A stretch of 50,654 nt of DNA, from contig CACANC010000006.1 in NCBI GenBank assembly GCA_902533755.1, positions 1-50,654 of the forward strand. The letters are read 5' to 3'. Origin of the DNA: an uncultured PS1 clade bacterium. GTDB taxonomy: Bacteria > Pseudomonadota > Alphaproteobacteria > MED-G09. The notes beneath the pieces were generated by a model. The model was not told where the DNA came from. It did not search any database and worked only from the letters and a program-made list of their open reading frames with translations. Position 1 is the first letter of the stretch. Each line of letters begins with the position of its first letter. A program made the translations under genes and the position numbers. Of this stretch, positions 28,577-49,917 are shown piece by piece.

Positions 28577-28593
28577 TTGCAATTTAATTGCAA
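28577..28593. promoter_or_regulatory. 8-1-8 palindrome upstream of the ferritin-like gene
   Basis: TTGCAATT-T-AATTGCAA perfect inverted repeat. Confidence 0.45.
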
Positions 28594-28601
28594 AAACTAA
28601 A

Positions 28602-29276: not shown

Positions 29277-29289
29277 CAGAAGATAGCTT

Positions 29290-29901: not shown

Positions 29902-30010
29902 AATTTTAATCCTTTTTTGATAATATTTATTTTATTTAGTAATTTTGTTAATCTGATTGAAAGATTAATGAAAAAAAAGATTTTTACAAATAATTTATAG
30001 GAGATTTAAA

Positions 30011-31482: not shown

Positions 31483-31540
31483 CTACAATGATTTATCATC
31501 AATTAAATGATTAATCTATAATAGATAAATGAAATTTAAT

Positions 31541-31572
31541 AAAAAAAAGAGGCAGCTTTCACTGCCTCTTTT
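31541..31572 (-). terminator. Rho-independent terminator after the TonB-dependent receptor
   Basis: AAAAGAGGCAG-ctttca-CTGCCTCTTTT hairpin; U8 tail on the minus strand. Confidence 0.9.
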
Positions 31573-31592
31573 AAATAAAGATTCTTATTAAA

Positions 31593-34034
31593 TTATCTTT
31601 GATAAGATAATTTTAGCGCAATAGTTCTTCCTGGTTTAATATAAGCATATCTATCACCAGCAAAACCAGCTTCTGTACCTGCGCCACCTCCAGTTGAAGG
31701 TGCATCAGAACCTGAAGTTTGAATATATTCATCACCTAGGTTTCTACCAATAAGAGCTAATTTCCAGCCAGCAGCAGGAGAAGATAAACTTATACCTGCA
31801 TCAACAGTATTGTACCTTGGTTGTTTAATGTCTGGAATAGTGTCGCTTAATCTATAATCATCAGATGCCTTAAGATTCATATTAAACCCAAGCTCAAGAC
31901 CGCTTCTTAAAATTGAATTATAGTTAATACCTAAATTTAATCTATTTTCAGGAGCTAGAGCTTTTTTACTACCATTAAGATTTTGTAGTGTTAGTCCGCC
32001 ATCTGGAACATTACAACCCTCTGAAGGTTTTTGACCACCTGCACAAGGACCAACAAATTTTACATAATTTGAATCGTTATAACCATATGCAGCAGTTAAT
32101 CTTAATCCATCAATTAATGGAGGAAGGTAAGCTACTTGTATTTCTAAACCTCTTGATTCAGACTCTTCAGCATTTAGAGTTCTATAAGCAAATGTAGCAG
32201 CGTTAAAGTAATTAAGCTGAAGATCATCATAAGTGTAATCGTAAATATCAAAATTCACTTCAAGACTTCCGTCGTTTAGAAGAGCTTTTATACCAGCTTC
32301 AAAACCACTAACTTTTTCAGGTTGATATGTGATATCTCCAAGTGGATCTGCATTTAAAGTGCTGTCAATTGATCCGTTATCAAAACCACCAGACTTCCAA
32401 CCTTCTTTGTAAGCTAGAAAATATGTAAGTGTTTCGGAAGGCTGATATCGGAAAGTTACTTCTGGGACAAAATCATCAAATGATTGATCAGCAGCTAGTG
32501 TTCTTCCTTCAATAAATAAGAAACCGAAAACAGGGTTAACATATGGTTGAATAAAATATGAATCTTTAGATTCATCGATATAACGACCACCAGCTGTTAA
32601 TTGCATAGTATCATTTATATCCCAGCGCAGTTCACCATAAACAGAGAAGGTTTCTCCATCAGTTTCTGAAATTTTATCATATGCAACATATCTATTAGTT
32701 GGATCAGCAGCAGAATTTTCAGCACCTGCAAAAATAACTTCCTGTGCAAAATATCTTTCTGTTTCCTGCCAATATCCGCCTAGAGCCCAGTTAAGTGATC
32801 CACCACCAGTAGAAACTAACTTTAGTTCTAGAGATAAATTTTCAAAATCATTAACTTCACCAGCAAAACAACTTGTATTTGAGTTGTAATCACAATCAAT
32901 AACCCAAGCTACATTTTGTTCATGAGAATTCAAAATTGCTCTTAGTTGAGCTGTATCAAAATCATGTGTGAAATCTGCAGTGTAAATTTTTGACTCATAG
33001 GTTTCACCTAACTCTCCACCAAATTGCCCTGTTATTTCATAAGCTGCAGCGGGAACAGTTGGTATATTGTTAAAACCTGTAGCTCTATCTTTTTTACACT
33101 CACCTCCAGTTGGAAGAGGATTTGCTACTCCTCCAGTGTTTATTTGGGGAATATCACCTAGATAACAGTCAAATAATTCAGCCATAGTAACTGAAGCCAT
33201 AGATTTATCAGCAAAACTTGCCTTAAGCTTCAAAGTTGATCTATCGCCAAGATCTCCTTTAATAGTTAGTCTTTGATAGGACTCTTCGCTTGCAGGAAAA
33301 TATTTGGTTGTTGGTTCAGGGTTTTCATGTGCTGTAGGAGCAAAACCATTAGCTGCATCAACAGTAGTATAAATTGTGTCAGTTGCAGTATTTTTAAACC
33401 AACCTTTATCCATTTCGCTCTCATAAACAGCCAAACGTGCGCCCCAGTTATCACTTATAGGTCCTGATATCACAAATTCATATGTATCTGACTCATATTC
33501 AAATTCATGTGTTACGCTTCCTGAAATTTCAAATTCATCACCTGGGTCATTAGTTACAATAGAAACAGCACCTGCAGTAGCATTTTTACCAAAGTAAAGA
33601 GCTTGAGGACCTTTTAGAATTGCAACCTGGTTTGTATCAAATAATCCTTCATTAATAACTCTTCCTTGAGGAAAATAAACACCATCTATCATAACAGCAA
33701 CTGATTGCTCAATACCTAAACTACCAGGACTAGATGCAATACCTCTAATTGCTATTTGAACTCCACTACCACTATTGATACGATTAATTTCAAGTGATGC
33801 AGATGACGCAGCTATATCATCAAGAGAATTAATATTAAGATTCTCCATTTCTTCTTCACTATAGGCAGTAATTGCAACAGGTATATCCCTTATAGATTCC
33901 TCTGTAGCACGAGCCGTAACGACAATTTCTTCAATAGATGAAGAAAGTGAACTTACATCAGAATCTTGAGCATTAATTGAAAAAGCAAAAAATACTGAAA
34001 ATACTGAAATAACCAGTTTCTTTATGTTTAACAT
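31593..34034 (-). CDS. TonB-dependent outer-membrane receptor
   Basis: Signal peptide, TonB box IEEIVVTAR, plug ILKGPQALYFGKNATAGAV, GWKSGGF, C-terminal PGRT beta strand. Confidence 0.95.
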   Translation of the reverse strand: MLNIKKLVISVFSVFFAFSINAQDSDVSSLSSSIEEIVVTARATEESIRDIPVAITAYSEEEMENLNINSLDDIAASSASLEINRINSGSGVQIAIRGIASSPGSLGIEQSVAVMIDGVYFPQGRVINEGLFDTNQVAILKGPQALYFGKNATAGAVSIVTNDPGDEFEISGSVTHEFEYESDTYEFVISGPISDNWGARLAVYESEMDKGWFKNTATDTIYTTVDAANGFAPTAHENPEPTTKYFPASEESYQRLTIKGDLGDRSTLKLKASFADKSMASVTMAELFDCYLGDIPQINTGGVANPLPTGGECKKDRATGFNNIPTVPAAAYEITGQFGGELGETYESKIYTADFTHDFDTAQLRAILNSHEQNVAWVIDCDYNSNTSCFAGEVNDFENLSLELKLVSTGGGSLNWALGGYWQETERYFAQEVIFAGAENSAADPTNRYVAYDKISETDGETFSVYGELRWDINDTMQLTAGGRYIDESKDSYFIQPYVNPVFGFLFIEGRTLAADQSFDDFVPEVTFRYQPSETLTYFLAYKEGWKSGGFDNGSIDSTLNADPLGDITYQPEKVSGFEAGIKALLNDGSLEVNFDIYDYTYDDLQLNYFNAATFAYRTLNAEESESRGLEIQVAYLPPLIDGLRLTAAYGYNDSNYVKFVGPCAGGQKPSEGCNVPDGGLTLQNLNGSKKALAPENRLNLGINYNSILRSGLELGFNMNLKASDDYRLSDTIPDIKQPRYNTVDAGISLSSPAAGWKLALIGRNLGDEYIQTSGSDAPSTGGGAGTEAGFAGDRYAYIKPGRTIALKLSYQR

Positions 34035-34149
34035 TCTGTTCCCTCCCCAGGTATATTCAAATTAATTAATAATTATTAATATTATTGGAAATTAAAGAAA
34101 AATATATAAAATGTAAAATAATTATTAATTAATTTTGATTTGGCTTAAT

Positions 34150-34164
34150 TTTATTAGATTATAA
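34150..34164 (+). repeat. 15-nt upstream motif, copy 1 (TTTATTAGATTATAA)
   Basis: Identical to 35980-35994; both precede a TTTAGGGG(G)AAAAA(A)TGG RBS/start. Confidence 0.7.
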
Positions 34165-34180
34165 TAATTTAGGGGGAAAA

Positions 34181-34591
34181 ATGGCTTTTATTGGTCCATT
34201 TGAAGACAGATTAGCAATTCATGAATTAGTTATGGTTTATGGCGATGCCGTAACTAGAAAGGATTCTGATGACTGGGGGTCAACTTGGGATGAAAATGCA
34301 ATATGGAGCGTTCCTAATTTTCCAGGATTAGAAAAAGTTGAAGGAAGAAAAGAAATAGTTAAAAAGTGGGAGGAAGCAATGGAAAATTATAAGTATATTG
34401 TTTTCACAGCCCTTTTAGGTTCCTTAGATATAAATGGTAATAAGGCTTCAGGTACTACCTATACAATTGAAGTGAGCACAGATATTGAAGAGAAAAAATC
34501 TCAAATTCATGGTCAATATCTTGATGAATTTATAAAAAAAGGAAATAAATGGTTTTTCCTAAAAAGAACATTTTCAATTTTACATGATTAA
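34181..34591 (+). CDS. SnoaL-like/NTF2 family protein
   Basis: EDRLAIHEL..YGDAV, WGSTW, GQYLDE, WFFLKR. Confidence 0.88.
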   Translation: MAFIGPFEDRLAIHELVMVYGDAVTRKDSDDWGSTWDENAIWSVPNFPGLEKVEGRKEIVKKWEEAMENYKYIVFTALLGSLDINGNKASGTTYTIEVSTDIEEKKSQIHGQYLDEFIKKGNKWFFLKRTFSILHD

Positions 34592-34608
34592 TAAAAATAA
34601 AGGTAACT

Positions 34609-35958
34609 ATGAGTATTGATTTAAAAAAAGAAAGAGAAAAAATCGTTAGTGGATCAGCTAATGTATTTTATGATGAAGAAGTTAAAATTACTGGAGAAAG
34701 ATACACATCTCATAGCTTTATGGAAAAAGAGATGGATAAAGTTTGGGCCAAAGTCTGGAATATTGGAGGCTGGAGTAATGAAATTCCCGAGTCAGGCGAT
34801 TACATAACCCATGAAATAGGCCGTGAATCTATTTTAATGGTAAGGCAGGAAGATAATTCTATAAAGGCTTTCCATAATGTTTGCCCTCACAGAGGAAATA
34901 GACTAGTTCATGATGATAATGGTTCTTCTCCAAGTTTTACATGCACTTATCATGGATGGAAATTCAACAATGAGGGTATTCTTGTTTATGCTCAGGATGA
35001 GGATGACTTTCCTCAAGGAAATCCTTGTGGAAAAATTAATCTAACTGAAATTCCTTGTAAAATTTATGGTGGTTTTATTTGGTATAATATGGATGAAAAC
35101 TGTACTCCTTTATTTGATTTTTTAGGAGAAGTAAAAAAATACTTCGATATGCATGACCTTAACGGTATGAAAAGAGTTTATTATAAAGTCAGTGAAGTGC
35201 CTTTTAACTGGAAAGCATTAAGAGATAATTTTAATGAGTCTTATCATTTGCCAATGACTCACCCTCAAATTATCGATTACTTTGATGATGATTACAAAAA
35301 CACTGATTTTGAACTTTTTAATACCGGCCACAATTTAATGAAAATGAAAGGATGCCTCCCCTCTTTAAGGGATAAAGGCACTTTCGAAATGAATGAAAAA
35401 CTTGAAGGCGATTTATTAAATTGGAACTTAAACCCAAAAGATTTTGATGGTAAGGCTCATTTGGTAAGAGAGGCCTTACAAAAACAAAAAAGAAAGTTAG
35501 GATCTAAAAGAGGTTTCGACCACTTTGAAAGAATGCCAGATGCTTGGTTAACTGATGCATTTCATTTTAATATTTTTCCAGGTACATCAATAACATTTAC
35601 TGCTGAGGTTTGTACTCTTCAAAGAACTGAACCTCATCCTACCGACCCTAATAAATCAATATATGATCATTGGCAAATGGCTCTAAGAGCAACAGACTCG
35701 GAAAATCCTGAAACCAATCCCACAATGTTGGTTGCTAGTCCAGAAGATATGGTTGAATGGAAAGAGGTTGATAAGCATGTTGTTATATTTGGCGAAGAAA
35801 CATTAAGTGATGTTGCAGATCAAGATCTTGATAGGTCAAGTGCACAACAATTGGGTTTTCATTCAAGGGGTTTTAAGGGAGCATACCTATCCGGACAAGA
35901 AAACAGAGTTCAACAATTTCATAATTTCATAGATAGATATATCTATGATAAGTTGTAA
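34609..35958 (+). CDS. Rieske non-heme iron oxygenase alpha subunit
   Basis: CPH..CTYH Rieske motif; NFNESYHLPMTH and DQD mononuclear iron ligands. Confidence 0.95.
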   Translation: MSIDLKKEREKIVSGSANVFYDEEVKITGERYTSHSFMEKEMDKVWAKVWNIGGWSNEIPESGDYITHEIGRESILMVRQEDNSIKAFHNVCPHRGNRLVHDDNGSSPSFTCTYHGWKFNNEGILVYAQDEDDFPQGNPCGKINLTEIPCKIYGGFIWYNMDENCTPLFDFLGEVKKYFDMHDLNGMKRVYYKVSEVPFNWKALRDNFNESYHLPMTHPQIIDYFDDDYKNTDFELFNTGHNLMKMKGCLPSLRDKGTFEMNEKLEGDLLNWNLNPKDFDGKAHLVREALQKQKRKLGSKRGFDHFERMPDAWLTDAFHFNIFPGTSITFTAEVCTLQRTEPHPTDPNKSIYDHWQMALRATDSENPETNPTMLVASPEDMVEWKEVDKHVVIFGEETLSDVADQDLDRSSAQQLGFHSRGFKGAYLSGQENRVQQFHNFIDRYIYDKL

Positions 35959-35979
35959 AAATATATTTTTTTTGTAAAA

Positions 35980-35994
35980 TTTATTAGATTATAA
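35980..35994 (+). repeat. 15-nt upstream motif, copy 2 (TTTATTAGATTATAA)
   Basis: Identical to 34150-34164. Confidence 0.7.
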
Positions 35995-36017
35995 AAGAAA
36001 TTTTTTTAGGGGAAAAA

Positions 36018-37451
36018 ATGGATAAAATAGTCAAACACCCATCAGTATTAGACGGTAAGAATCCAAATGAATTAAGAGGCGACTCAATAACTAATGATCG
36101 ATATTTTTGTAAAGATTTTATGGATAAAGAATGGAGCCATATGTGGACAAAAGTATGGTTAATAGCTGGAAGAGAAATACAAATTGAAGAACCAGGTGAT
36201 TATATTGTTCATGATTTAGTTAAAGAATCCGTTATCATTGTAAGGCAAAAAGATGGGTCTATAAGGGGTTTCTACAATAGCTGTGCGCATCGAGGTCAAA
36301 GACTAGTTGAATGCGATAGCTCACAAGACTCTTTTCGTTGCCCTTATCATGATTGGCAGTTTGGATTAAATGGCGATGTAATAAGTGTTCCTGATGAAGA
36401 TGATTATCCTCAAGGAAGTCCAGTAGGAAAAAGAAAGTTAGTCGAAGTTAGAGTTGATACATGGGATGGTTTCATTTTTTACACGATGAGTGATGAGGCT
36501 CCTGATCTTATGGATTATTTAGATCCAATTCCTGAGATATATAAAAATCACAATTTTAAAGATCAAATTAGAGCTCAATGGGTTAGAGTTGAGCTGGATG
36601 TTAATTGGAAATTCTTTTGCGATAATTTTAATGAGTCATATCATACTCGATTTGTACATCCTCAGGTACCTTCTGTAATTGACCAAGATCATTTTACTTC
36701 AAGATATGAAATGTTTCCAAAAGGTCATGCGAGAATAATTCAAATGGGTCGTCCATCATTAAGAGATAAAGTGAACGAAGATGAAGATCATCCGTTCAAA
36801 ATGATACTTGAAAGTTGGGGAGTTGATGTGAGTCAGTATCCTGATTATGAAACATTATCTGAGCAAGGTTGGACAGATCTAAAAAAAGCAAAAAGAAAAT
36901 TATATAAAGAAAAAGGTTACCATCATTATGAAAACCTATCTGATGAAGAGTTAACAGAAAGCCCTTTTCAATTTATTTTTCCAAATATTGCTATGGGTGT
37001 ACAAGCAGATGGCTGCATTCTCTTAAACTGGTTTCCACATCCAACTGATCCAGAAAAATGTTTTTTTGATCTATGGGATATGGGATATCCAATTGGTGGA
37101 TCAGCAAAAGGTATAGGTAAAACAGGCAGAGAAAACGATCAAGCATTTACCTCAACTTCTGCAGGCATAGGTAAAAAAGATGAAGCTAACGATCAAGAAT
37201 TTCTTAGTCGCACTAAAGTAAACCCAGTTAAACTTCAAGAAGTTGAATTAGATTTTAGAGATTATGACGGCGGCAAAGGAGTTGAAGACTTATGGGATCA
37301 TGTCGTTTATCAAGATTGGCAACTTACTGATGGTTTAAGAAGAGGTGTAAGATCAAAAGGATACCAAGAGCCTTATCTTGCAGCTCAAGAAACGAGAGTT
37401 AGATACTTTCATGAAACACTACATGATTATCTAAATGGAAAAGAACCCTAA
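36018..37451 (+). CDS. Rieske non-heme iron oxygenase alpha subunit
   Basis: CAH..CPYH; NFNESYHTRFVH; YQD. Confidence 0.95.
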   Translation: MDKIVKHPSVLDGKNPNELRGDSITNDRYFCKDFMDKEWSHMWTKVWLIAGREIQIEEPGDYIVHDLVKESVIIVRQKDGSIRGFYNSCAHRGQRLVECDSSQDSFRCPYHDWQFGLNGDVISVPDEDDYPQGSPVGKRKLVEVRVDTWDGFIFYTMSDEAPDLMDYLDPIPEIYKNHNFKDQIRAQWVRVELDVNWKFFCDNFNESYHTRFVHPQVPSVIDQDHFTSRYEMFPKGHARIIQMGRPSLRDKVNEDEDHPFKMILESWGVDVSQYPDYETLSEQGWTDLKKAKRKLYKEKGYHHYENLSDEELTESPFQFIFPNIAMGVQADGCILLNWFPHPTDPEKCFFDLWDMGYPIGGSAKGIGKTGRENDQAFTSTSAGIGKKDEANDQEFLSRTKVNPVKLQEVELDFRDYDGGKGVEDLWDHVVYQDWQLTDGLRRGVRSKGYQEPYLAAQETRVRYFHETLHDYLNGKEP

Positions 37452-37452
37452 T

Positions 37453-37481
37453 AAAAAAAGCGCCTAAATAGACGCTTTTTT
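37453..37481. terminator. Bidirectional intrinsic terminator between convergent genes
   Basis: AAAAAAAGCGCCTA-AA-TAGACGCTTTTTT hairpin with A and T tails. Confidence 0.82.
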
Positions 37482-37498
37482 CATAAATTTAAAAAAAA

Positions 37499-37909
37499 TT
37501 AATTTTGTTTAGGTAACCAAATCTGAGTTAAAATTATTATTGTAACAACTGCTAAAAAGGCTATACCTAATGGGGTTGGAGTTGTAAGTGCTTCAGTAGT
37601 ACCAACATATTCAAGATAAGCTTGAGCACCTTCTGATATTGATCCATTTTGTTCTTTAAGATCTGTAATTGCTCTTGCAGTAACTATCCATAAATTACCT
37701 CCAAATGTATATTGTTGCCATGCAAATGCTACGACAATAAGACCAAATGCAGTTGATATAATTTTTGCGATAACATTTGCTTCATCTGAAGCCCTTGTTG
37801 CAGCCGCAATTCTTAATGATAGCCAAATAGCTAATATAATCCCTATTGATACTAATGCTGTACCTGCTCTATTGCTCGCCCATAAAGTCCATATCTGAAA
37901 TTCTTCCAT
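37499..37909 (-). CDS. Hypothetical membrane protein (paralog B)
   Basis: 136 aa, about 3 TM segments, AGGAG RBS; aligns with 37961-38362. Confidence 0.8.
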   Translation of the reverse strand: MEEFQIWTLWASNRAGTALVSIGIILAIWLSLRIAAATRASDEANVIAKIISTAFGLIVVAFAWQQYTFGGNLWIVTARAITDLKEQNGSISEGAQAYLEYVGTTEALTTPTPLGIAFLAVVTIIILTQIWLPKQN

Positions 37910-37960
37910 TTTTTTCTCCTTTCTTAAATAATGAATAAATTTATATAATTTTTATTATTT

Positions 37961-38362
37961 TTATTTTTTTACCCAAATTGGCGCAAGAAGAGCAATAACA
38001 ACCACTATCCACCAGACGCCAGTTATTGGATCCCAAGGAATTAAAGAAAATTGAGGAGGTTCAGAAATTGGTAAAAAATCTACAAACCTTTGTGCATGTG
38101 GAGATAAACTATCCAATTGCCCTAAAGAATATGAAGTGCTTCTCCAATTAATAGAAAAGAACCCAGAGATCTGTAAACCACTGTAAACTATGCCAAGTCC
38201 AAATAAAGAACTAATAATTTTTGTAGGTAAATTAGCTCCTTGATCATAAATCCTTAATGATCCTCTTAATGCAGCCCACAAAAGAACAAAAACTCCCAAT
38301 TGAAACATTGCATTACTTATAGCTTGCATCCAAAACATATTTAGAATTTGATATTCAGTCAT
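37961..38362 (-). CDS. Hypothetical membrane protein (paralog A)
   Basis: 133 aa, about 3 TM segments, AAGGAGG RBS. Confidence 0.8.
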   Translation of the reverse strand: MTEYQILNMFWMQAISNAMFQLGVFVLLWAALRGSLRIYDQGANLPTKIISSLFGLGIVYSGLQISGFFSINWRSTSYSLGQLDSLSPHAQRFVDFLPISEPPQFSLIPWDPITGVWWIVVVIALLAPIWVKK

Positions 38363-38387
38363 ATAACCCTCCTTATTATTTTAAAAC

Positions 38388-38402
38388 TGAGAATGATTCT
38401 TA
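38388..38402. promoter_or_regulatory. Fur-box-like 7-1-7 inverted repeat
   Basis: TGAGAAT-G-ATTCTTA versus the Fur 7-1-7 consensus TGATAAT-N-ATTATCA; 25 nt upstream of ATG 38362. Confidence 0.55.
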
Positions 38403-38448
38403 TCTAATAAGAAATTTTGTATTTATGCGATATCTTTTTTTAATTTTA

Positions 38449-38457
38449 TGTGGATAA
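38449..38457 (-). promoter_or_regulatory. Consensus DnaA box
   Basis: TGTGGATAA (TTATCCACA on the minus strand), intergenic; single perfect copy. Confidence 0.35.
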
Positions 38458-38476
38458 CTTTTTTTATTATAATTCC

Positions 38477-38635
38477 TTAAGGTTGAACTAATTTAATCTT
38501 TATTTTTTGTTTTTTAATTTTTAACCTATGAAGGTGAGAGTAAGTATTCTGTGTTCTTTTGCTGATAATCGATTTAATATTAGCTCTTCTTTTTCTGGCT
38601 CTATCTGATCTTGTTAAGCGCCTTGATTTATCCAT
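38477..38635 (-). CDS. Putative small, highly basic protein (52 aa; not in the ORF track)
   Basis: Hand translation MDKSRRLTRSDRARKRRANIKSIISKRTQNTYSHLHRLKIKKQKIKIKLVQP*; no clear RBS. Confidence 0.4.
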   Translation of the reverse strand: MDKSRRLTRSDRARKRRANIKSIISKRTQNTYSHLHRLKIKKQKIKIKLVQP

Positions 38636-38678
38636 AAGAACATTTTATTGATGCTTAAAATTATTTCAAACGAGAATC

Positions 38679-39035
38679 CTACATCTTAGATTCATGTTCC
38701 TCAACAATATAAGTTCTCATTAGAGATAAATCGAAAATTTTTTCCTCATCATCATTTATTTCTTTTTTAATTTCAGTTTTTTGAAGGTTTTCAGCACATT
38801 TTTCGAATGTTTCCATGTCCGGATACCATATTTCCATTAATACATCGAAATCTGGATCATATATTTTTCCTGATCTATCGGGCAAAGGATTGGTAAAGCG
38901 TCTTATATATTTTGTAGCGTATCCTGTTAGATATTTCTCACCTATTATTCTGTGTTTGGTTTCATAGTATTTTCGAAATTCCTCGATTGTCATACCTTCT
39001 TTTCTTCTCATAGGCATTATAACTTTTATCATCAA
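38679..39035 (-). CDS. EthD-domain (dimeric alpha-beta barrel) protein
   Basis: RRKEGMTIEEFRKYYETKH, FDVLMEIWY, DEEKIFD. Confidence 0.88.
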   Translation of the reverse strand: MMIKVIMPMRRKEGMTIEEFRKYYETKHRIIGEKYLTGYATKYIRRFTNPLPDRSGKIYDPDFDVLMEIWYPDMETFEKCAENLQKTEIKKEINDDEEKIFDLSLMRTYIVEEHESKM

Positions 39036-39043
39036 TATTCTCC

Positions 39044-40246: not shown

Positions 40247-40304
40247 AGTTTATTCCTTAAAATCATTATTTGAAAACATATCTATTTAAGACTATATAAT
40301 TTGC

Positions 40305-41279
40305 ATGAGATTACTATTAGTTTTTTTTATAATTCTACTTTCTACTTCAATATCTTTTTCAGAAGATAGATTTTCTAATTCCGATGGTAAGAAGAATGAA
40401 AAAAGTCTTAGTGAAGTTCTAGAATGGAGTTGGAGTCGGGAAGAACCAAAAAAAGAATTTATTGAAACAAGTCAAATAATAGATTCTGAATTTTTTGAAG
40501 ATCGTAAATTTTATGCTTTATGGATTGGCCATTCTACATTTCTAGTTAATAATGGCGATATTACAATTTTATTTGATCCTATATTTTCGGATAGGGCTTC
40601 TCCATTATCTTTTGCTGGACCAAAAAGACTAATTAAACCTGCAATCGATATTAAAGATTTACCAAAAATTGATGTTATTACAATTAGTCATAATCATTAT
40701 GATCATCTTGATATCAATAGTTTAAGAAAAATACAAAAGAGATTTCCTAATGTTAAAATTTTAGTTCCAAAGGGTGATTTAAAGTTACTGAAAAAATATC
40801 AACTTGTTAATGGATACGAATTTATATGGTGGGAAGATAAAATAATAAGCAAAACAAAATTCACTTTCACTCCAGCACAGCATTGGTCAGCAAGAGGTCT
40901 TAGAGATAGAAATAAAAGTTTATGGGGCAGTTGGTTCATTGAAAACGATAATAAAAATATTTTCCATGCTGGTGATACAGGTTATTCAAAAGATTTTGTT
41001 GAGATAAAAAATAAACTTGGGTCAGTAGATTTTGCAATGATACCTATTGGTGCATATGATCCTGAATGGTTTATGAGTTATTCACATGTTACTCCAGAGG
41101 AAGCATTGAATATATCAATAGATCTTGATGCTAAAAAGAGTATAGGAATGCACTGGGGAACCTTTATATTAACTGATGAACCAGTTTTAGAGCCTAGGGA
41201 AAGATTGAAGAAAATAGCCTCTGAAACAAATATTAATTTTTACACAGTTGAGCCTGGAATAATAATTGAATTATATTAA
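40305..41279 (+). CDS. MBL-fold hydrolase, NAPE-PLD/RomA-like, exported
   Basis: WIGHST, SHNHYDHLD, PAQHWSARG, AGDTGY, MHWGTF. Confidence 0.9.
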   Translation: MRLLLVFFIILLSTSISFSEDRFSNSDGKKNEKSLSEVLEWSWSREEPKKEFIETSQIIDSEFFEDRKFYALWIGHSTFLVNNGDITILFDPIFSDRASPLSFAGPKRLIKPAIDIKDLPKIDVITISHNHYDHLDINSLRKIQKRFPNVKILVPKGDLKLLKKYQLVNGYEFIWWEDKIISKTKFTFTPAQHWSARGLRDRNKSLWGSWFIENDNKNIFHAGDTGYSKDFVEIKNKLGSVDFAMIPIGAYDPEWFMSYSHVTPEEALNISIDLDAKKSIGMHWGTFILTDEPVLEPRERLKKIASETNINFYTVEPGIIIELY

Positions 41280-41286
41280 TTAAACC

Positions 41287-42651
41287 CTATCTTCTTCCTT
41301 CAATATAATCATTTAATACCTCATGATATCTTCTAACCCTTCTTTCTTGATTGGTTAAAATTGCATCCGTAAAGCCTTTTGACTTGACGCCTTTTTGTTG
41401 ACCTATAGCCATACTGATATCTTGATCAGTAACATAACCCATGGAGCCTTCCGGATATATTACCCATTCATGCTCAGCAGGTCTCAATGGCCTTGGTCCA
41501 AGAGGTGTCTCGGTCATATTCTCTCCTGCAGTATTTTCAGTTGTATCTGACCCCATAAAAGTTGCTGAGGCTGATAATTGTTCCATATCTGGAACAAGCC
41601 ACCAATGCTCAAAAAGGCACTTTTCTGGATCTTTTGGATGTGGTTGAGGTCTTTGAAACTGAATCCCGTCAGGAGTCATAGTGATATCATAATTAGGAAA
41701 GCAATTATAAAAATAATAATCAGTCAATTGTTCATCGGTTAAAAATTCATAATGCCAAAAACCTCTATCTTTGGCTAATTTCCTCTTTTGCTCTTGTATA
41801 GCTAGTCTTGTTTCTTGAGCTTTACCTTTAAAATCCTTAGGATTGAGATCCCATGCCTCTAACGCAGCATCAAGAGGGAAATTAACTTCATTTGGTGATT
41901 GATCTCCCAATGCAGGTTTATGACCAGGCATAAGCATTCTGTTGTGACCATTATCATACATATCAAATTGCGAAAATTTATAATCATTTTCGATATGAAC
42001 TGATAGCTCAGGATGTAATGTTGGTAAATGATATGACTCATTAAAATTATCGTGAATTATCTTCCAATTACAATCAACTTCGCAAGTGAGATTTAAAACC
42101 CTTATATATTTCTCAGGCTGATAAGGACTCATATGGCTAATTAAGGGGTTAAGAGCTTCTTCAAACTTCTGAGGTTTTTCAGCAAGAGTAACCCAAACAA
42201 AACCGAGAGCAACTTCGCAATGAATTTCTTTTAATTTAATTTTTCCACAAGGGTTACCATCGTCAAAATCCTCAGGATCTTGAAGATTCCTTAAAATTCC
42301 CTCAGTATCGTACTCCCATCCATGATAAGTGCATTTAAATGTATCTAATGATCCATTTTCAACATGAACCAATATATTTCCTCTATGAGGACAAACATTG
42401 TAAAAAGCTTTTATAGAGTTATCTTTTTGACGAACCACTAATACTTCTTCCAAACCAATCTTATAGACAAAAAAATCATCTGGTTCTGGTATTTCAGATG
42501 CAATCCCTGCAATCTGCCATACCTTTGTCCACATATGGTCCCATTCTTTTTGCATAAATTCTTTTGAATAATATCTTTCACCTGAAATCCTATCTCCTCT
42601 TAGTTCAGGATCAGGGTGCTTATCTCTTGGCGTAGGTATAATTTTATTCAT
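41287..42651 (-). CDS. Rieske non-heme iron oxygenase alpha subunit
   Basis: CPH..CTYH; NFNESYHLPTLH; DQD. Confidence 0.95.
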   Translation of the reverse strand: MNKIIPTPRDKHPDPELRGDRISGERYYSKEFMQKEWDHMWTKVWQIAGIASEIPEPDDFFVYKIGLEEVLVVRQKDNSIKAFYNVCPHRGNILVHVENGSLDTFKCTYHGWEYDTEGILRNLQDPEDFDDGNPCGKIKLKEIHCEVALGFVWVTLAEKPQKFEEALNPLISHMSPYQPEKYIRVLNLTCEVDCNWKIIHDNFNESYHLPTLHPELSVHIENDYKFSQFDMYDNGHNRMLMPGHKPALGDQSPNEVNFPLDAALEAWDLNPKDFKGKAQETRLAIQEQKRKLAKDRGFWHYEFLTDEQLTDYYFYNCFPNYDITMTPDGIQFQRPQPHPKDPEKCLFEHWWLVPDMEQLSASATFMGSDTTENTAGENMTETPLGPRPLRPAEHEWVIYPEGSMGYVTDQDISMAIGQQKGVKSKGFTDAILTNQERRVRRYHEVLNDYIEGRR

Positions 42652-42656
42652 TATAA

Positions 42657-43055
42657 TTACTCTCCATAAAGATTGCTAAACGATCTCTTAGAAAATTTCC
42701 ATTCACCATTTTCTATAATGCATTCATCATCATATTGACCACAAGGTCGTAATTCAGTTCCATCAGGTAAAACTGCCGTTTCAATAGTATAGCTTCTCAT
42801 AGAAGCTTTATCGCCATTAATATTTATAAAACCAGGTTGGGCGATCATATGTACAAATGGGTACCCTTTCATGGCTTCATTCCAAACATTAATAATTGTT
42901 TCCTTGCCTTCATTTTTGATATCTAAATGTGGAATTTCCCAGATAGCATTTTCTGACCATGTACTGCCCCAGATGCTAGCATCTCTTTGATTAACACCGT
43001 CACAATATCGATCTAAAAGCTCTCTTATAGCTAATTTTTCTTCCATAATACTCAT
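42657..43055 (-). CDS. SnoaL-like/NTF2 family protein
   Basis: EKLAIRELLDRYCDGV, WGSTW, GQYDDE, WKFSKR; paralog of 34181-34591. Confidence 0.88.
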   Translation of the reverse strand: MSIMEEKLAIRELLDRYCDGVNQRDASIWGSTWSENAIWEIPHLDIKNEGKETIINVWNEAMKGYPFVHMIAQPGFININGDKASMRSYTIETAVLPDGTELRPCGQYDDECIIENGEWKFSKRSFSNLYGE

Positions 43056-43227
43056 AGAAAACCCCCTTTTTTATTAATTACTAAGCTCAATTAATTTATA
43101 GTCTAGGTTAAAATATAATGAAATTACAGTTTTTTTTGAGTAAAAAATTGTTTCAAAAAATATCATTTTTTCTTGCTAAAATTAAAAATTAACATAAAAA
43201 CTAGGGAATGCTATATATAGTGTTGTT

Positions 43228-44646
43228 ATGAGTGAAATAAAAAAAGAAAACCAAAAGCTTTCAGTTGTTAAAACGGGTGACGAAAGATCGCCAGATATAA
43301 GCTATACAGAATACTTAATGGAAGATGCAAAAACAGTACCTGAATTTATGGTTGAAGAAACTTATGAATATCTTGGCTCTGAAGATATAGATACTTCCAG
43401 ATATATTTCTAAAGAATTTTTTGAAAAAGAAAGAGACTGCATGTGGACTAGAGTCTGGCAATTTGCTTGCAGAGTAGAGGATATTCCTGAAGTTGGTGAT
43501 AGTCTTGTTTACGATATACTTGATTGGTCTTTTTTAATTGTGAGATCTGAGGAAGATAAAATTCAAGCTTTTTATAATAGCTGTTTGCACAGAGGAAGAA
43601 GAATTAAGACTGAACGCGGATTTGGTAAAGATTTACAATGTCCTTTCCATGGTTTTTGTTGGAATTTAGATGGATCATTAAAATTTACTCCTGCTCCATG
43701 GGATTTTCAGCACATAAAAGATAGAGATTTTAAACTTCCAGAAGTTAGAGTTGAGATTTGGGAAGGTTTTGTATTTATTAATATGGATGATAAAGCTGTC
43801 TCACTAGAAGAATACCTTGCCCCTCTTCCGGAACATCATAAAAGATGGAATCTAGGTGATTGTAAAAAAGTTATTCATGTTTCAAAAGTAGTTCCAGGTA
43901 ATTGGAAGACAGTTCAAGAAGCATTTATGGAGTCTTTTCATGCAACATTAATTCATCCTGAAATTTTACCTTTCCAGGCAGATGAAAATGCACGTTATGA
44001 TATTTACGGCGATCATATGAATAGAAATATTGCTTTAACAGGAAAACCAAGTCCAAATCTTAAAAATGTAGATGAGCAGGAAATACTAGACACCATTTTT
44101 TACGGATCTGGTCGAATGGCTGCAGATGATAAGATTCTTGTTCCAGAAGGCGAAGAAGCTAGAAAGGTTGCAGCTCAAGCTATGAGAGATGCCTTTAAAG
44201 AATCCGATGGGCATGATTACTCTGATAAATCAGATGCAGAAATGCTTGATGCAATAGTTTATAATGTATTTCCAAATTTTTCACCTTGGGGTGGCTTTCC
44301 AAGAAACCTTATCTATAGATTTCGACCAAATGGAAATAGAGAAGACTCTGCAATAATGGAAGCTATGTTTTTGCAAAGAAATCATAAAGATCCTGATAAG
44401 CAAGAAAAATATGAACCAATCCCAATACATTATCTTAATGAAGATGAAAACTGGGACGATGCTGAAGAATTAACTGGTATAGGTTTTATTTTTGATCAAG
44501 ATATGGGTAATATACCTGAGGTTGAAAGAGGTATTCGAGCTAGTAAATCTGGTAAATTAACATATGCAAATTATCAAGAAAGTAGGCTTAGACATTACCA
44601 TCAAACAATGGATAAATATATTGCAAAGGGTCCTTTTAAGCCTTAA
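43228..44646 (+). CDS. Rieske non-heme iron oxygenase alpha subunit
   Basis: CLH..CPFH; AFMESFHATLIH; DQD. Confidence 0.95.
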   Translation: MSEIKKENQKLSVVKTGDERSPDISYTEYLMEDAKTVPEFMVEETYEYLGSEDIDTSRYISKEFFEKERDCMWTRVWQFACRVEDIPEVGDSLVYDILDWSFLIVRSEEDKIQAFYNSCLHRGRRIKTERGFGKDLQCPFHGFCWNLDGSLKFTPAPWDFQHIKDRDFKLPEVRVEIWEGFVFINMDDKAVSLEEYLAPLPEHHKRWNLGDCKKVIHVSKVVPGNWKTVQEAFMESFHATLIHPEILPFQADENARYDIYGDHMNRNIALTGKPSPNLKNVDEQEILDTIFYGSGRMAADDKILVPEGEEARKVAAQAMRDAFKESDGHDYSDKSDAEMLDAIVYNVFPNFSPWGGFPRNLIYRFRPNGNREDSAIMEAMFLQRNHKDPDKQEKYEPIPIHYLNEDENWDDAEELTGIGFIFDQDMGNIPEVERGIRASKSGKLTYANYQESRLRHYHQTMDKYIAKGPFKP

Positions 44647-45407
44647 GCAGTACTTCCTCCATCAACAGTATAAATAGAGCCTGTAACAAAAGAACTATCA
44701 TCGCTTGCAAGAAAAAGCATTACTTTGGCTACATCTTCGGGTTCACCATATCTACCTAATGGAATATTTGACTCCATAAGACCTTTTGCTTGCTCAGACT
44801 CACCCGGCATCAAGCCTTCCTCTAGACTTCTCATCATTCTTGTCTCAACCGGAGAAGGGTTAACTGTGTTTACTCTTATATTTTTGTCAGCACACTCTTT
44901 TGCAGCAGATTTCATTAAACCAATTACTGCATGCTTACTTGTTGCATAGGCACCTATTTGTGGTGCACCAGATAAACCTGCTATACTAGAAGTTATAATA
45001 AAACTTCCGCCTCCTCTATCAGTTAGTGCCGGAATGGATGCCTTTAAGCCTAAAAAAGGCCCTTTCACATTTACAGCCATGACTTGATCAAATTTTTCAA
45101 TATCATAATCTTCTAAATTTTTAACATCACCTTCAATACCAGCATTTGCAACAAAAATATCAAGACCGCCAAATTTCTCTTTTGCTATTTCTACAGCTCT
45201 TAAATTATCCTCAATAGATGTTACGTCACCTGCGCAATAGCTGAGGTGATTAGAGCCAATTTCTTGGCACAAGTTTTTTAAATCGTTTTCATTTAAATCA
45301 AAAAGTAATACATCAGAGCCTTCATTTAAAAATTCTAATGCTGTTGCTTTTCCTATTCCGCCAGCACCGCCAGTAATTATCGCTACCTTATTATCTAATT
45401 TTTTCAT
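44643..45407 (-). CDS. Classical SDR oxidoreductase
   Basis: TGGAGGIG, ANAG, YATSK, NIRVN, DGG. Confidence 0.93.
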   Translation of the reverse strand: MKKLDNKVAIITGGAGGIGKATALEFLNEGSDVLLFDLNENDLKNLCQEIGSNHLSYCAGDVTSIEDNLRAVEIAKEKFGGLDIFVANAGIEGDVKNLEDYDIEKFDQVMAVNVKGPFLGLKASIPALTDRGGGSFIITSSIAGLSGAPQIGAYATSKHAVIGLMKSAAKECADKNIRVNTVNPSPVETRMMRSLEEGLMPGESEQAKGLMESNIPLGRYGEPEDVAKVMLFLASDDSSFVTGSIYTVDGGSTA

Positions 45408-45419
45408 CGTAAAAATATA

Positions 45420-46307
45420 CTAAGAAGTGTCTTTAACTAAATTGCTTTGTGAGGGAAGTGATGAAAAATCATCTCTTTCTTCACCAAAAATTCTTTCAGG
45501 ACTTACTGAATCCATTGTTCCTTTTTTATCATCAGGGTCAGTGTAAAAACCAAGAACATATCCACCTTTTGAATATCCAATAAGGGCTCTTAATTCAGGT
45601 GAAAAATTCTTAGCTACTTCAGGAGGGTGAGATAGATATTGATTCTCCTCTTGCCTTAGCCAGTTCAAGGCATAATGCATAAAAACTCCAGTTCTAATCT
45701 CATTATTAGTAGAGTTTTTTCCACCTCCGTGAAGAACAGTTCCAGTATATAGCAATACTGAACCAGAAGACATTTCAGCATAAGCAATTTCATCCTTGTC
45801 AGGAACTCTATCTTTATCCCAATTATGTGAACCTGGAACAACTTGTGTAGCACCATTTTCTTTTGTGAAATCAGTTAAAGCCCAAATTGTACTGAAATGA
45901 GTTTCTATTTTTCTTGGAATATATCCACCCCATATTCCTCTATCTCGGTGAAGTATCTGTTTTGATTCTCCAGGACCAATACTGACAGCAGAAGTGAAGT
46001 GAAGTTGGTACCCATCACCATAAGGTTCAAGGAAATTACAAGCTAGATTATTTATTAGGGGATGAAGAGCTAGATTTTGACAACCTACTGATCTTGCTAA
46101 CAAGCCTCCTACTCTTTTAGTCTCAAAACCAGTAAATTCAGTCTTTCCTTTAATATAATTATTTAAATATGGATCTAGTTCATCTTTAATCTGACTTAAT
46201 AAATCATTATCTAGAACATCATCTAAGATTAATGCCGCATCTTGATCAATGACACTCAAAATATCCTCTTGAGATGCATCTGCTTTCAAGTGTTTTATAT
46301 CAGCCAT
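45420..46307 (-). CDS. Phytanoyl-CoA dioxygenase (PhyH) family Fe(II)/2OG enzyme
   Basis: QILHRD, ALTDFTKENGATQVVPGSH, LHGGG, WLRQEENQYL. Confidence 0.92.
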   Translation of the reverse strand: MADIKHLKADASQEDILSVIDQDAALILDDVLDNDLLSQIKDELDPYLNNYIKGKTEFTGFETKRVGGLLARSVGCQNLALHPLINNLACNFLEPYGDGYQLHFTSAVSIGPGESKQILHRDRGIWGGYIPRKIETHFSTIWALTDFTKENGATQVVPGSHNWDKDRVPDKDEIAYAEMSSGSVLLYTGTVLHGGGKNSTNNEIRTGVFMHYALNWLRQEENQYLSHPPEVAKNFSPELRALIGYSKGGYVLGFYTDPDDKKGTMDSVSPERIFGEERDDFSSLPSQSNLVKDTS

Positions 46308-46310
46308 TTA

Positions 46311-46763
46311 TCAAATCCATCGCCTAACTTTTTTCATATATACTGTGAATTCTTCACCAAAAAGCTCAAGCATCGCATTCTCTTCAGGAATAATTTGAAA
46401 ATAAGTAATATATCCAACAAATAAAGGTAAGAATATTAAACCTACAATTAAACCGTTATAAATAGATAAACCTAATAAAAACAATAACATACCTAAATAC
46501 ATAGGGTTACGTGTAATCTTAAAAAAACCATCAGTTACTAATTTAGATGTCTCATTAGGCTTCATAGGATTAACTGTTGTATCTTTCTTTTTAAAATTTC
46601 TTGCTGATGAAAAAGTTACAATAAAACCTAATACTATAAAAAATATTGAAATATATATTTTAAAAGGTAAATTGATATATGCAAAATTGTCTGAAAAATA
46701 GAAAATCATAATAGCAAATAATATTGTTACTATTGGTGGTGGTATTTTTGTATTCAAAAACAT
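46311..46763 (-). CDS. Isoprenylcysteine carboxyl methyltransferase family membrane protein
   Basis: KIPPP, TTVNP, TRNPMYLG, QIIPEE, VRRWI. Confidence 0.9.
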   Translation of the reverse strand: MFLNTKIPPPIVTILFAIMIFYFSDNFAYINLPFKIYISIFFIVLGFIVTFSSARNFKKKDTTVNPMKPNETSKLVTDGFFKITRNPMYLGMLLFLLGLSIYNGLIVGLIFLPLFVGYITYFQIIPEENAMLELFGEEFTVYMKKVRRWI

Positions 46764-47173
46764 TATTGCTGACGAACTCCTCTAGAAACTAATCTATGAC
46801 GATATATTTTCCAATCCCCATCAACTCTCCTCATATCTGTTTCATATGTTGCCCAAAGAGTAAGTATTTCACCCTCGGGTTCTTTAAGGTAATGTAAAGC
46901 CTGAACATCTGTTCTGCAGTGGGCGTCATCGCCATTAATTGAGGCAAGTTGGGGGCCTAGCATATGTTGAGTAGGACCATAATTTGAGAGTGCACCTTTC
47001 ACATATTCAACCCAATTATCTCTTCCATTTATAGCTTCTTCACCAAAATCTAAAATCTCGACATCTTCGATAAAACATGAAGAATAAAGATTAAAATCAC
47101 GCTCATCAACACCTGCTGCATATCTAAGCATAACATCTTGTAAAGCAATTCTATCCGCTACATGATCAGTCAT
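46763..47173 (-). CDS. SnoaL-like/NTF2 family protein (LinA/BaiE-like)
   Basis: DRIALQD..YAAGVDERD, TQHMLG, WKI; start moved to ATG 47173 behind AGGGGAA. Confidence 0.88.
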   Translation of the reverse strand: MTDHVADRIALQDVMLRYAAGVDERDFNLYSSCFIEDVEILDFGEEAINGRDNWVEYVKGALSNYGPTQHMLGPQLASINGDDAHCRTDVQALHYLKEPEGEILTLWATYETDMRRVDGDWKIYRHRLVSRGVRQQ

Positions 47174-47253
47174 AGTCTTCCCCTTTAAAAATATATTTTT
47201 ATTTAAGCATAAATTTTGGCATAATTTAAATAATAAGTGAGAATAATAAAACA

Positions 47254-48411
47254 ATGCCAGAAATAAAACCTTTCAAAATTGAAGTTACTGATCAAGATAT
47301 AAATGAATTAAGAAACAGAATCGAATATACCCGATGGCCAGAAAAAGAAACTGTAAACGACTGGAACCAAGGTACCCCTTTATCTTATATGAAAGAAGTT
47401 AGTGAATATTGGATTAATAACTATAACTGGAGAGAAAGAGAAAAATATTATAATTCTTTTGATCAGTATATTACGACTATAGATGAACTTAATATTCATT
47501 TCGTTCATGTTAAAAGTGAAATTGAAAACGCAACACCATTAATTATGAGTCATGGTTGGCCTGGTTCAATTGTAGAATTTCATAAAATAATAAAACCTCT
47601 TGTTGATCCTCTTAATTATGGAGGAAAGAAAGAGGATGCATTCCATGTTGTTTGCCCTTCTCTTCCTGGATACGGATTTTCTAGTAAACCGACAAAGAAC
47701 GGAACAGGAGTTGATAAAATTGCTGACATTTGGGATCAACTAATGATTAAAATTGGTTATAAAAATTACTTCGCACAGGGTGGTGATTGGGGCTCAGCCA
47801 TAACAATTGCTATTGGAAAGCAAAACAAAGGTAATTGTTTAGGACTACATGTTAACATGCCTTTTGCTCCACCAACTAAGGAGGCTATAGAAAATCCAAG
47901 TGAAAGAGATAAAATTGCATTTGAAGGCTTAAATTATTATCAAGAATGGGGTTCTGGTTATTCAAAGCAACAAAGTACAAGACCACAAACCTTAGGGTAT
48001 AGCTTAGTCGACTCGCCAATAGGTCAAGCAGCTTGGATAATTGAAAAATTTTATGAATGGACTGACTGTGATGGTCATCCCGAAAATATACTCACAAAGG
48101 AAGAATTAATTGATAATATTATGTTTTACTGGTTAACAAAAAGCGGTGCGTCTTCAGCACGCCTTTATTGGGAGAGCTTTGGATCATTTGGAGGTAATCC
48201 TGATGAAAAACTTTCATTACCAATTGGTTGTAGTATCTTTCCAAAAGAAATTTCTCGTACGCCCAGAGCCTGGGCAGAGCAAGTTTATTCTAATATTGTC
48301 TATTGGAACGAATTAGACAAAGGGGGTCATTTTGCAGCCTTTGAGCAACCCGAACTTTTTATAAATGAAATAAGAAATTGTTTTAGAACAATACGAGACA
48401 ATTTGTCTTAA
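47254..48411 (+). CDS. Epoxide hydrolase (microsomal type, EHN domain)
   Basis: HGWPGS, PSLPGYGFS, QGGDWG, GGHFAAFEQP. Confidence 0.93.
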   Translation: MPEIKPFKIEVTDQDINELRNRIEYTRWPEKETVNDWNQGTPLSYMKEVSEYWINNYNWREREKYYNSFDQYITTIDELNIHFVHVKSEIENATPLIMSHGWPGSIVEFHKIIKPLVDPLNYGGKKEDAFHVVCPSLPGYGFSSKPTKNGTGVDKIADIWDQLMIKIGYKNYFAQGGDWGSAITIAIGKQNKGNCLGLHVNMPFAPPTKEAIENPSERDKIAFEGLNYYQEWGSGYSKQQSTRPQTLGYSLVDSPIGQAAWIIEKFYEWTDCDGHPENILTKEELIDNIMFYWLTKSGASSARLYWESFGSFGGNPDEKLSLPIGCSIFPKEISRTPRAWAEQVYSNIVYWNELDKGGHFAAFEQPELFINEIRNCFRTIRDNLS

Positions 48412-48474
48412 TTAATTAATTGTACTTTAAATAAAAAAACATATTTTCCATTATTAGTAGGTAGGGAGCAGCTA

Positions 48475-49581: not shown

Positions 49582-49582
49582 G

Positions 49583-49915: not shown

Positions 49916-49917
49916 AT

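Follow-up and report, generated by a model that had tools for sequence, protein, structure and literature searches.

The DNA analysed here (hereafter, the window) comprises 50,654 nucleotides of contig CACANC010000006.1 in GenBank assembly GCA_902533755.1, from an uncultured PS1 clade bacterium of the alphaproteobacterial lineage MED-G09, and its subject is a run of Rieske oxygenase (RO) genes and associated genes at positions 31593–49581 (hereafter, the island). The source contig (C6) belongs to a 1.08-Mb assembly of 61 contigs that is 62% complete (labelled G000 below), and G+C is low along the window (29–36% per 2 kb). Reading from the left, the gene of a TonB-dependent receptor (TBDR; 813 aa; 31593–34034, minus strand; Pfam Plug and TonB_dep_Rec_b-barrel) is divergent from three plus-strand genes: Sno1 (136 aa, SnoaL_4, NTF2-fold; 34181–34591), RO1 (449 aa; 34609–35958) and RO2 (477 aa; 36018–37451), the latter two, like RO3 and RO4, being alpha subunits with Pfam Rieske and Ring_hydroxyl_A domains. 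Two paralogous small membrane proteins with hydrophobic segments visible by eye follow on the minus strand (hyp136, 136 aa, 37499–37909; and a 133-aa protein, 37961–38362), as do an EthD gene (38679–39035) and, 8 bp from it, the gene of a Sacchrp_dh_NADP-domain reductase (39044–40246). Past a plus-strand hydrolase of the metallo-beta-lactamase (MBL) fold (Lactamase_B_2; 40305–41279), RO3 (41287–42651) and Sno2 (SnoaL_4; 42657–43055) lie on the minus strand, and RO4 (43228–44646, plus) is transcribed divergently from Sno2. The remainder consists of a tightly packed minus-strand string with gaps of −1 to 12 bp, made up of Sno3 (SnoaL_4; 46763–47254), a PEMT/ICMT-like membrane methyltransferase (46311–46763), PhyH (45420–46307) and a short-chain dehydrogenase/reductase (SDR; 44643–45407), followed on the plus strand by an epoxide hydrolase (EHN plus alpha/beta hydrolase; 47254–48411) and by a 368-aa protein (48475–49581) that has a signal peptide and may form an outer-membrane channel.

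A preliminary description of this region had listed most of these genes and read them as one uncharacterised oxidative pathway with its own importer. The inventory held up, since every gene named there is an intact open reading frame (ORF) with Pfam matches over the curated cut-off, and the families do span uptake, oxygenation, elimination, epoxide opening and alcohol oxidation. Two labels had to be changed: the gene at 39044–40246, first called enoyl-reductase-like, belongs to the Sacchrp_dh_NADP family, and the hydrolase at 40305–41279, first called NAPE-PLD-like, is an MBL-fold protein of the Lactamase_B_2 family. The membrane methyltransferase, the two small membrane proteins and the 368-aa outer-membrane-like protein had been overlooked. 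Judged by strand changes and spacing, the region falls into at least eight transcription units; Pfam returned no DNA-binding domain among the 20 island proteins scanned, a promoter consensus scan gave 85 sites against 90 ± 10 in shuffles, hence no excess and no help in delimiting the units, and no riboswitch was found in the island, including beside the TBDR. Four of the 14 RO alphas of the 1.08-Mb assembly lie inside 10 kb, where a Poisson expectation is 0.13 RO alphas per 10 kb, giving P(≥4) of ~1e-5 per such interval by our own arithmetic.

All four alphas score over the cut-offs of both PF00355 and PF00848, which places them among the Rieske non-heme iron oxygenase alpha subunits. The four are old paralogues: by alignment RO2–RO4 are 27–44% identical to RO1, RO4 being the most divergent (27% identical to RO1) and RO2 carrying an insertion in the catalytic domain, with its Ring_hydroxyl_A match in two stretches. 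All four alphas, and 48 RO1-family sequences as well, share the Rieske ligands C92, H94, C112 and H115 without exception. The four also agree in the iron-site histidines H213 and H218; the acid preceding the first iron histidine is D206 in RO1–RO3 and Glu in RO4. D406, likewise invariant, is a candidate for the carboxylate of the 2-His-1-carboxylate site.

To place these oxygenases relative to characterised enzymes, curated-model scores, PDB sequence searches, Foldseek and plasmid tblastn were compared, and none of them returned a characterised close relative from which a substrate could be named. The best PDB sequence matches of RO1 are CntA (E 1e-32), 3n0q, the stachydrine demethylase 3vca and classical dioxygenases, all confined to the Rieske half (residues ~30–230). 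Its AlphaFold2 (AF2) model (pLDDT 87.7) superposes on solved ROs at TMq ~0.6–0.65 with 17–21% identity in Foldseek, the nearest being CntA 6y9c (TMq 0.64, 20% identity). RO1 has 1235 homologues at E≤1e-20, and the names listed among the best 120 of them are all generic. Among curated NCBIfam models, GbcA scores best for RO1, RO3 and RO4 and is level with HcaE for RO2, with scores of 133, 113, 126 and 109 bits over the N-terminal half only and against a cut-off of 670; the HcaE, BenA, AntA and AndAc models give at best 50–114 bits (cut-offs 672–830), and the 4beta-methylsterol monooxygenase model NF052579 gives 17–34 bits (cut-off 600). Membership of RO1–RO4 in the glycine betaine/carnitine/stachydrine monooxygenases was considered and rejected, with scores far under the GbcA cut-off and ~20% identity. 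No equivalog cut-off of NCBIfam was reached by any of the 20 island proteins, and the sole NCBIfam cut-off passed was that of a generic 'glucose 1-dehydrogenase' subfamily model, by the SDR; as far as these comparisons reach, the island holds no orthologue of any characterised enzyme, and the earlier remark that the cluster matches no named pathway is borne out by these results and by the 17–21% identity to solved ROs. Our literature search likewise found no account of Rieske oxygenases in this lineage.

The island is one part of a much larger set. We examined 25 genomes of the family in three genera (g1, that of the window; g2; g3), 0.9–1.6 Mb in size, 8 of which are at least 90% complete. 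RO matches at E≤1e-30 number 5–16 per genome and SnoaL_4 matches 5–14 per genome, both in 25 of 25, and five genomes of 1.3–1.4 Mb that are at least 95% complete have 15–20 PF00848 matches each, figures that cannot be read as numbers of genes, since an RO2-type gene yields two matches. The G000 assembly holds 14 RO alpha ORFs, 13 TBDR-like ORFs, at least 25 SDR-like ORFs and 10 SnoaL_4 matches, and its ten further RO loci come with their own SDRs or TBDRs; on contig C2, for example, positions 58859–68873 (locus L045) carry ThuA, an RO alpha, a 126-aa Rieske ferredoxin, an SDR, ThuA, an SDR and two TBDRs. Across the family, RO alphas, SnoaL_4 proteins and TBDRs have expanded together in genomes of ~1.3–1.4 Mb, and the island is part of this expansion.

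Within g1, four further genomes (G003, G008, G006, G004) preserve the full order from a ChrR-like gene through the island to a second MBL gene, and so, as far as they extend, do the shorter stretches of G001, G010, L001 and L002, so that the neighbourhood conservation proposed as a check was found within the genus. The sister genus g3 presents another picture. RO2 orthologues (85–87%) sit there in other multi-RO clusters, and RO2, RO3 and RO4 are unlinked: they lie on contigs C19, C12 and C23 of G021, on C8, C6 and C3 of G023, and in G024 on C8, on C6 at 231 kb and on C6 at 0.2 kb. The preliminary description had named genes unlinked in relatives and not co-expressed as a finding that would refute its reading, and in g3 the first part of this was found. 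At all three g3 RO4 loci, RO4, the divergent Sno2, an SDR-like gene, hyp136 and EthD stay together; a TBDR 80% identical to that of the window adjoins in G023, and Sno3 (73–75%) lies within 10 kb in two of the three. From this linkage pattern we conclude that an older scaffold of TBDR, EthD, hyp136, Sno2, RO4 and Sno3 has gained RO1/Sno1, RO2 and RO3 in g1. Distribution across the 25 genomes is also uneven, with RO4 orthologues (≥76%) in 22, RO3 matches at E≤1e-150 (67–100% identical) in 20 and RO1 orthologues (≥74%) in only 13, and Sno1–RO1 are present or absent independently of the neighbouring genes.

The left end of the island (TBDR, Sno1 and RO1) is a hypervariable segment. DNA identity between the window and G003 is 92.5% over 25148–31426 and 91.3% over 35046–48402 and only 67–73% over 31588–35042, where Sno1 and the TBDR are swapped in place. 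TBDR protein identity to relatives ranges over 57–97% while flanking genes are at 96–99%: against G003, the TBDR, Sno1 and RO1 are 58%, 74% and 78% identical, compared with 97% for RO2, 96% for RO3 and 99% each for RO4, GST and ChrR, and G008 gives 57%, 75% and 77% with neighbours similar to those of G003. The same three proteins are 79%, 96% and 99.6% identical in L001, 93%, 80% and 75% in G006, and 97%, 95% and 96% in L002. The TBDR, Sno1 and RO1 alleles therefore reassort between strains. The trio recurs in g2 (TBDR, Sno1 and RO1 at 66%, 67% and 81–82%), in G018 of g3 (79%, 77% and 74%) and in a Pseudomonadales metagenome-assembled genome (MAG; locus L008; 55%, 59% and 67%), where P450, Zn-ADH, two MFS transporter and TetR genes are the neighbours of an RO1–TBDR pair 14 bp apart; in L009, another gammaproteobacterial locus, RO1 stands by itself. 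In L008 a Fic/DOC-family gene (13925–15133, minus strand) lies between the RO1–TBDR pair and the Sno1 homologue, and may be an insertion that splits the trio.

We therefore read the region, with moderate confidence, as a genus-specific oxygenase island of semi-independent oxidation modules and not as one obligate pathway. That reading keeps from the preliminary description an import-linked, uncharacterised oxidative function without ring cleavage and gives up the idea of one dedicated pathway for one compound. The alternative it displaces, in which four oxygenases act in succession on a single complex hydrophobic compound, is unlikely, although it survives best of those considered. The four g1 genomes named above share one gene order with the window from the TBDR through to the epoxide hydrolase, the families could make a chemically coherent series, and NTF2–RO pairs and a P450 are likewise clustered on plasmid pNL2 of Novosphingobium (together with a TBDR and SDRs) and on plasmid p1 of Novosphingobium sp. 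ES2-1. Against it stand the eight or more transcription units and the lack of a DNA-binding domain among the scanned proteins, the dispersal of the g3 orthologues, the independent coming and going of RO1/Sno1, the reassorting alleles, and the ten other RO loci, which leave only 4 of the 14 RO alphas of the assembly here.

The three NTF2-fold proteins bear on a second alternative, that the island encodes classical alpha3beta3 dioxygenases that start aromatic degradation, with Sno1 and Sno2 as the beta subunits of RO1 and RO3. The position of the genes invites it: RO1 is preceded by Sno1 at a distance of 17 bp and RO3 by Sno2 at 5 bp, a beta-type NTF2 gene resembling 3eby lies directly upstream of RO1 homologues at four of five sphingomonad loci, and on pNL2 the gene for the protein of structure 3b8l immediately precedes that of an RO1 homologue. 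The proteins themselves point elsewhere. Sno1–Sno3 match SnoaL_4 and do not reach PF00866 (Ring_hydroxyl_B), whose best score in the window assembly is 14.3 bits, under the cut-off, on C2; across the family PF00866 gives marginal matches only (≤31.6 bits, in 14 of 25 genomes), and of 15 such places listed at least seven coincide with SnoaL_4 matches among those listed. In Foldseek, the AF2 model of Sno1 (pLDDT 96.8) is closest to 3b8l (TMq 0.85), LinA (0.82) and a scytalone-dehydratase-like protein (0.81), with bile-acid 7-alpha dehydratases at 0.70–0.78 and RO beta subunits at 0.67–0.70, so that on the predicted model its fold is nearer the dehydratase/isomerase branch than the RO beta subunits. 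Gene arrangement argues the same way: in G003, G008, G012 and G013 the opposite-strand TBDR stands between Sno1 and RO1, in L008 the two are 4 kb apart, the g3 RO3 orthologues (74–88%) have no NTF2 gene within 10 kb at four of four loci, and RO2 and RO4 have no co-oriented NTF2 gene. Together with the ring-cleavage results given below, these observations make the alpha3beta3 arrangement improbable.

Conserved residues further separate the NTF2-fold proteins from one another. The invariant polar residues of the Sno1 family are E15, Y20, D22, Y94, E97, Y113, D115 and R129, and both Sno1 and Sno2 carry Thr or Asn at the position of the LinA Asp. A weak HMMER alignment of Sno3 with LinA (3s5c; E 1.3e-3) pairs GVDERD with GVDKRQ and the His of PTQHM with the His of ETIHY, residues that would correspond to the LinA catalytic pair, which we take to be D25/H73. 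Translation of Sno3 probably starts at Met27: the SnoaL_4 match begins at residue 31, the 26 residues ahead of Met27 look spurious, and the listed TTG start is immediately next to the start codon of the epoxide hydrolase. For Sno1 we put the chances of a separate enzyme at about even and those of a divergent small subunit distinctly lower, with other roles making up the rest.

The preliminary description had remarked that no ring-cleavage dioxygenase lies inside the cluster, and the searched families turned out to be missing well beyond it: LigB (PF02900), intradiol dioxygenase (PF00775) and gentisate dioxygenase (TIGR02272) were found in 0 of the 25 family genomes, and none of the 25 reached the cut-off for catechol 2,3-dioxygenase (TIGR03211); four of them (all three of g2 and one of g1) gave weak matches. 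Because these families are absent, monooxygenase-type oxidation is likelier than classical aromatic degradation, and the oxygenases are unlikely to match their database label; taken with the absent or marginal beta subunits and the missing FNR-type reductase, this argues that 'aromatic ring-hydroxylating dioxygenase' is a misleading name for them. Non-aromatic or incompletely degraded substrates are favoured, although no substrate is named thereby, and the class suggested earlier (terpenoid, steroid, lipid or alkaloid) is a guess. The FNR-type reductase domain PF00175 is absent from G000 and from five of five near-complete relatives, and the electron supply is probably a ferredoxin plus a Pyr_redox_2 reductase whose genes lie in another part of the genome. 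Candidate donors are the 126-aa Rieske ferredoxin mentioned above (C2:61292–61672) and a 106-aa Fer2 protein (C1:25787–26107) whose gene adjoins that of a Pyr_redox_2 protein (C1:26104–27174).

The TBDR scores 51 bits with PF07715 and 120 bits with PF00593, as expected of a receptor with plug and barrel, and has an N-terminal signal peptide by eye. It falls under all NCBIfam cut-offs for siderophore and heme receptors (TIGR01783, 102.7 vs 223.5; TIGR01785, 88.2 vs 316.85). Its other neighbour is a beta-propeller phytase gene (30418–31482), co-directional with it and 110 bp away, and a third alternative is that the receptor serves the phytase in phosphorus or metal scavenging and is unrelated to the oxygenases, whose substrates would enter otherwise. 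Phytase–TBDR pairing is found in other bacteria, and G023 keeps a TBDR orthologue (80%) without an RO1 orthologue. A consensus scan nevertheless places a terminator-like hairpin (12 pairs, then a T-run; 31545–31572, minus strand) in the gap separating the end of the TBDR gene from the phytase gene, which suggests that the two are not co-transcribed; the TBDR adjoins Sno1/RO1 without a phytase in G012, G013, G018 and the Pseudomonadales MAG, in the last of these 14 bp downstream of RO1 at operon-like spacing; and in G003 and G008 Sno1 is placed between the TBDR and the phytase. On balance we favour a link of the TBDR to the oxygenases, and service to the phytase alone is doubtful in about the same degree as the alpha3beta3 arrangement. 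A biosynthetic tailoring cluster for a secondary metabolite, which the family mix resembles (RO, SnoaL, EthD, methyltransferase and epoxide hydrolase being common polyketide and terpenoid tailoring families) and for which an N-terminal similarity of 3b8l-like proteins to the epoxide-opening enzymes MonBI/MonBII also speaks, is very improbable, given that no polyketide synthase, nonribosomal peptide synthetase or terpene synthase was found among the 51 ORFs scanned with Pfam or NCBIfam of the 60 in the window of at least 90 aa, that the TBDR and a secreted hydrolase point to import, and that the same families are multiplied across the genome.

Under the reading of the island as semi-independent oxidation modules, the TBDR, and perhaps also the porin-like 368-aa protein, would pass one or more hydrophobic or bulky organic compounds through the outer membrane, and cytoplasmic alpha-type ROs of an uncharacterised subfamily would add oxygen, more likely by hydroxylation, demethylation or desaturation than by aromatic cis-dihydroxylation, with electrons supplied by a ferredoxin and reductase encoded elsewhere. 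The NTF2-fold enzymes, SDR, PhyH, epoxide hydrolase and reductase may then modify the oxygenated products, Sno3 with its putative LinA-like Asp/His pair and Sno1 and Sno2 with a different conserved polar set.

Several points weigh against this reading. Gene order is constant over ~20 kb across the genus, which is still compatible with one pathway, and the beta-like NTF2 genes at sphingomonad loci mean that Sno1 could be a divergent small subunit and not an enzyme. The absence of ring cleavage rests on four family models and on a set in which just 8 of 25 genomes are at least 90% complete; other cupin or VOC enzymes could act, and a 136-aa VOC protein is encoded near the island at 30011–30421. 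Twenty marine metatranscriptome runs from 14 studies hold 9–20% of the sampled words of 34101–44100, and RNA-library contigs at least 92% alike (four runs, four studies) cover 23–28 of 30 bins of 31001–50654, which shows presence only, as assembled RNA-library contigs cannot prove transcription, rank the genes or reveal operons and co-expression, and uncovered bins carry no meaning.

The remaining island genes add detail to this picture. The MBL-fold hydrolase is probably periplasmic because of its N-terminal signal peptide (by eye), and the epoxide hydrolase, with 132 bits for PF06441 and 54 bits for PF00561, has the domain composition of the microsomal type. The two small membrane proteins have no Pfam or NCBIfam match. 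Of these, hyp136 occurs as two allele types (99% identity in G008, 54–61% elsewhere), and the 133-aa protein is 95–98% identical in G001, G003, G008 and G004, is undetected at its position in L001 and G006, and in L002 yields no more than a weak match, at 25%, to the adjacent paralogue. Elsewhere in the G000 assembly, C7:34383–42573 carries three tandem TBDR genes followed by a paralogue of these small membrane proteins, an adjacency which suggests that small membrane proteins of this kind recur as companions of TBDRs. The 368-aa protein matches no Pfam family, and the Atlas gave a single lead for it, the outer-membrane family PF13557 in 17% of the members of one cluster.

Outside the island, the scanned ORFs of the window serve housekeeping functions (glycine cleavage, LytB, UbiA, threonine synthase, ferrochelatase). 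A glycine riboswitch aptamer (9511–9594, minus strand; 68 bits vs a gathering score of 32) lies directly upstream of the glycine-cleavage T-protein gene (8252–9436, minus), which is followed by two P-protein genes, an ordinary arrangement. A 665-aa fusion of a GFO/IDH/MocA oxidoreductase and an aldo/keto reductase domain (17202–19199, minus) adjoins MAPEG and APH-family kinase genes. DNA alignments to L025, L027, L001 and L002 break at 24170–25147, a segment that holds an FkbM-type methyltransferase gene (24291–25145), which for this reason looks strain-variable; a C5 cytosine DNA methylase gene (25856–26950) adjoins it, and no restriction enzyme was recognised nearby.

RO catabolic clusters with TBDR uptake are a known kind of system, and a sphingomonad look-alike exists. 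On pNL2 of N. aromaticivorans DSM 12444 (record 145.8–166.5 kb), as in the island, a TBDR accompanies an NTF2 gene directly upstream of an RO1 homologue (44%), together with three more RO alphas, NTF2 partners (one of them 3eby-like and beta-type) and several SDRs; the structure of this NTF2 partner has been solved (3b8l), and Sno1 matches it best in both sequence and fold, and an RO–ThuA pair of pNL2 also occurs in G000 itself (C2:58859–63258). Plasmid p1 of Novosphingobium sp. ES2-1 repeats the pNL2 core (P450, RO–NTF2, RO, VOC, NTF2–RO), and the 19 kb examined have no TBDR, no RO–ThuA pair and a single SDR-type gene. Unlike the island, the Novosphingobium clusters have extra P450s, an FAD oxidoreductase and an acyl-CoA dehydrogenase, and they do not have its EthD, PhyH, epoxide hydrolase and membrane methyltransferase. 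No paper mentioning Saro_3534–3540 of pNL2 was found, although supplementary files, which lay outside the search, could hold locus-level data.

Other characterised systems share single traits with the island. The pathway of Sphingobium sp. SYK-6 starts with a Rieske-type demethylase and proceeds to ring cleavage, whereas the present lineage is without the ring-cleavage families searched. DdvT of that strain is reported to be a TonB-dependent receptor that imports a lignin-derived compound for catabolism and not a siderophore (PMC6874591), and uptake of this type would resemble that proposed for the island. The alpha-only quaternary-amine monooxygenases CntA, stachydrine demethylase and GbcA are the best structural or sequence matches of RO1, and the island ROs differ from them in matching over the Rieske half only, at ~20% identity, and are not members of that group. 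In marine oligotrophs of the SAR202 group, flavin monooxygenase paralogues have expanded and are proposed to attack diverse recalcitrant dissolved organic matter; the likeness is that of many divergent oxygenase paralogues in one lineage, and here the expanded set consists of RO alphas, SnoaL_4 proteins and TBDRs in alphaproteobacterial genomes of ~1.3–1.4 Mb. In the literature searched, we found no description of this RO subfamily, of its NTF2 partners, of an expansion on this scale in small genomes, or of such allele reassortment.

The compact trio of TBDR, NTF2 and RO1, the candidate electron donors and the tractable look-alike in N. aromaticivorans with its 3b8l crystal structure offer experimental handles, and solving one of these would annotate more than 1000 homologues. 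A broader proposal, which we advance tentatively, is that the family swapped classical aromatic catabolism for ~14–20 alpha-type ROs with NTF2 enzymes and TonB importers and without ring cleavage, so as to partially oxidise many alicyclic or refractory dissolved organics; the TBDR–NTF2–RO1 trio might then be a swappable specificity cassette that crosses to Gammaproteobacteria and serves to partition niches or to evade receptor-using phages. Planktonic bacteria with genomes this small (~1.3–1.4 Mb) are believed to retain only genes that repay their cost. To devote about one gene in 100 to ROs (our own estimate from 15–20 PF00848 matches per genome), in addition to the matching NTF2-fold proteins and TBDRs, points to a major and so far unnamed carbon source.

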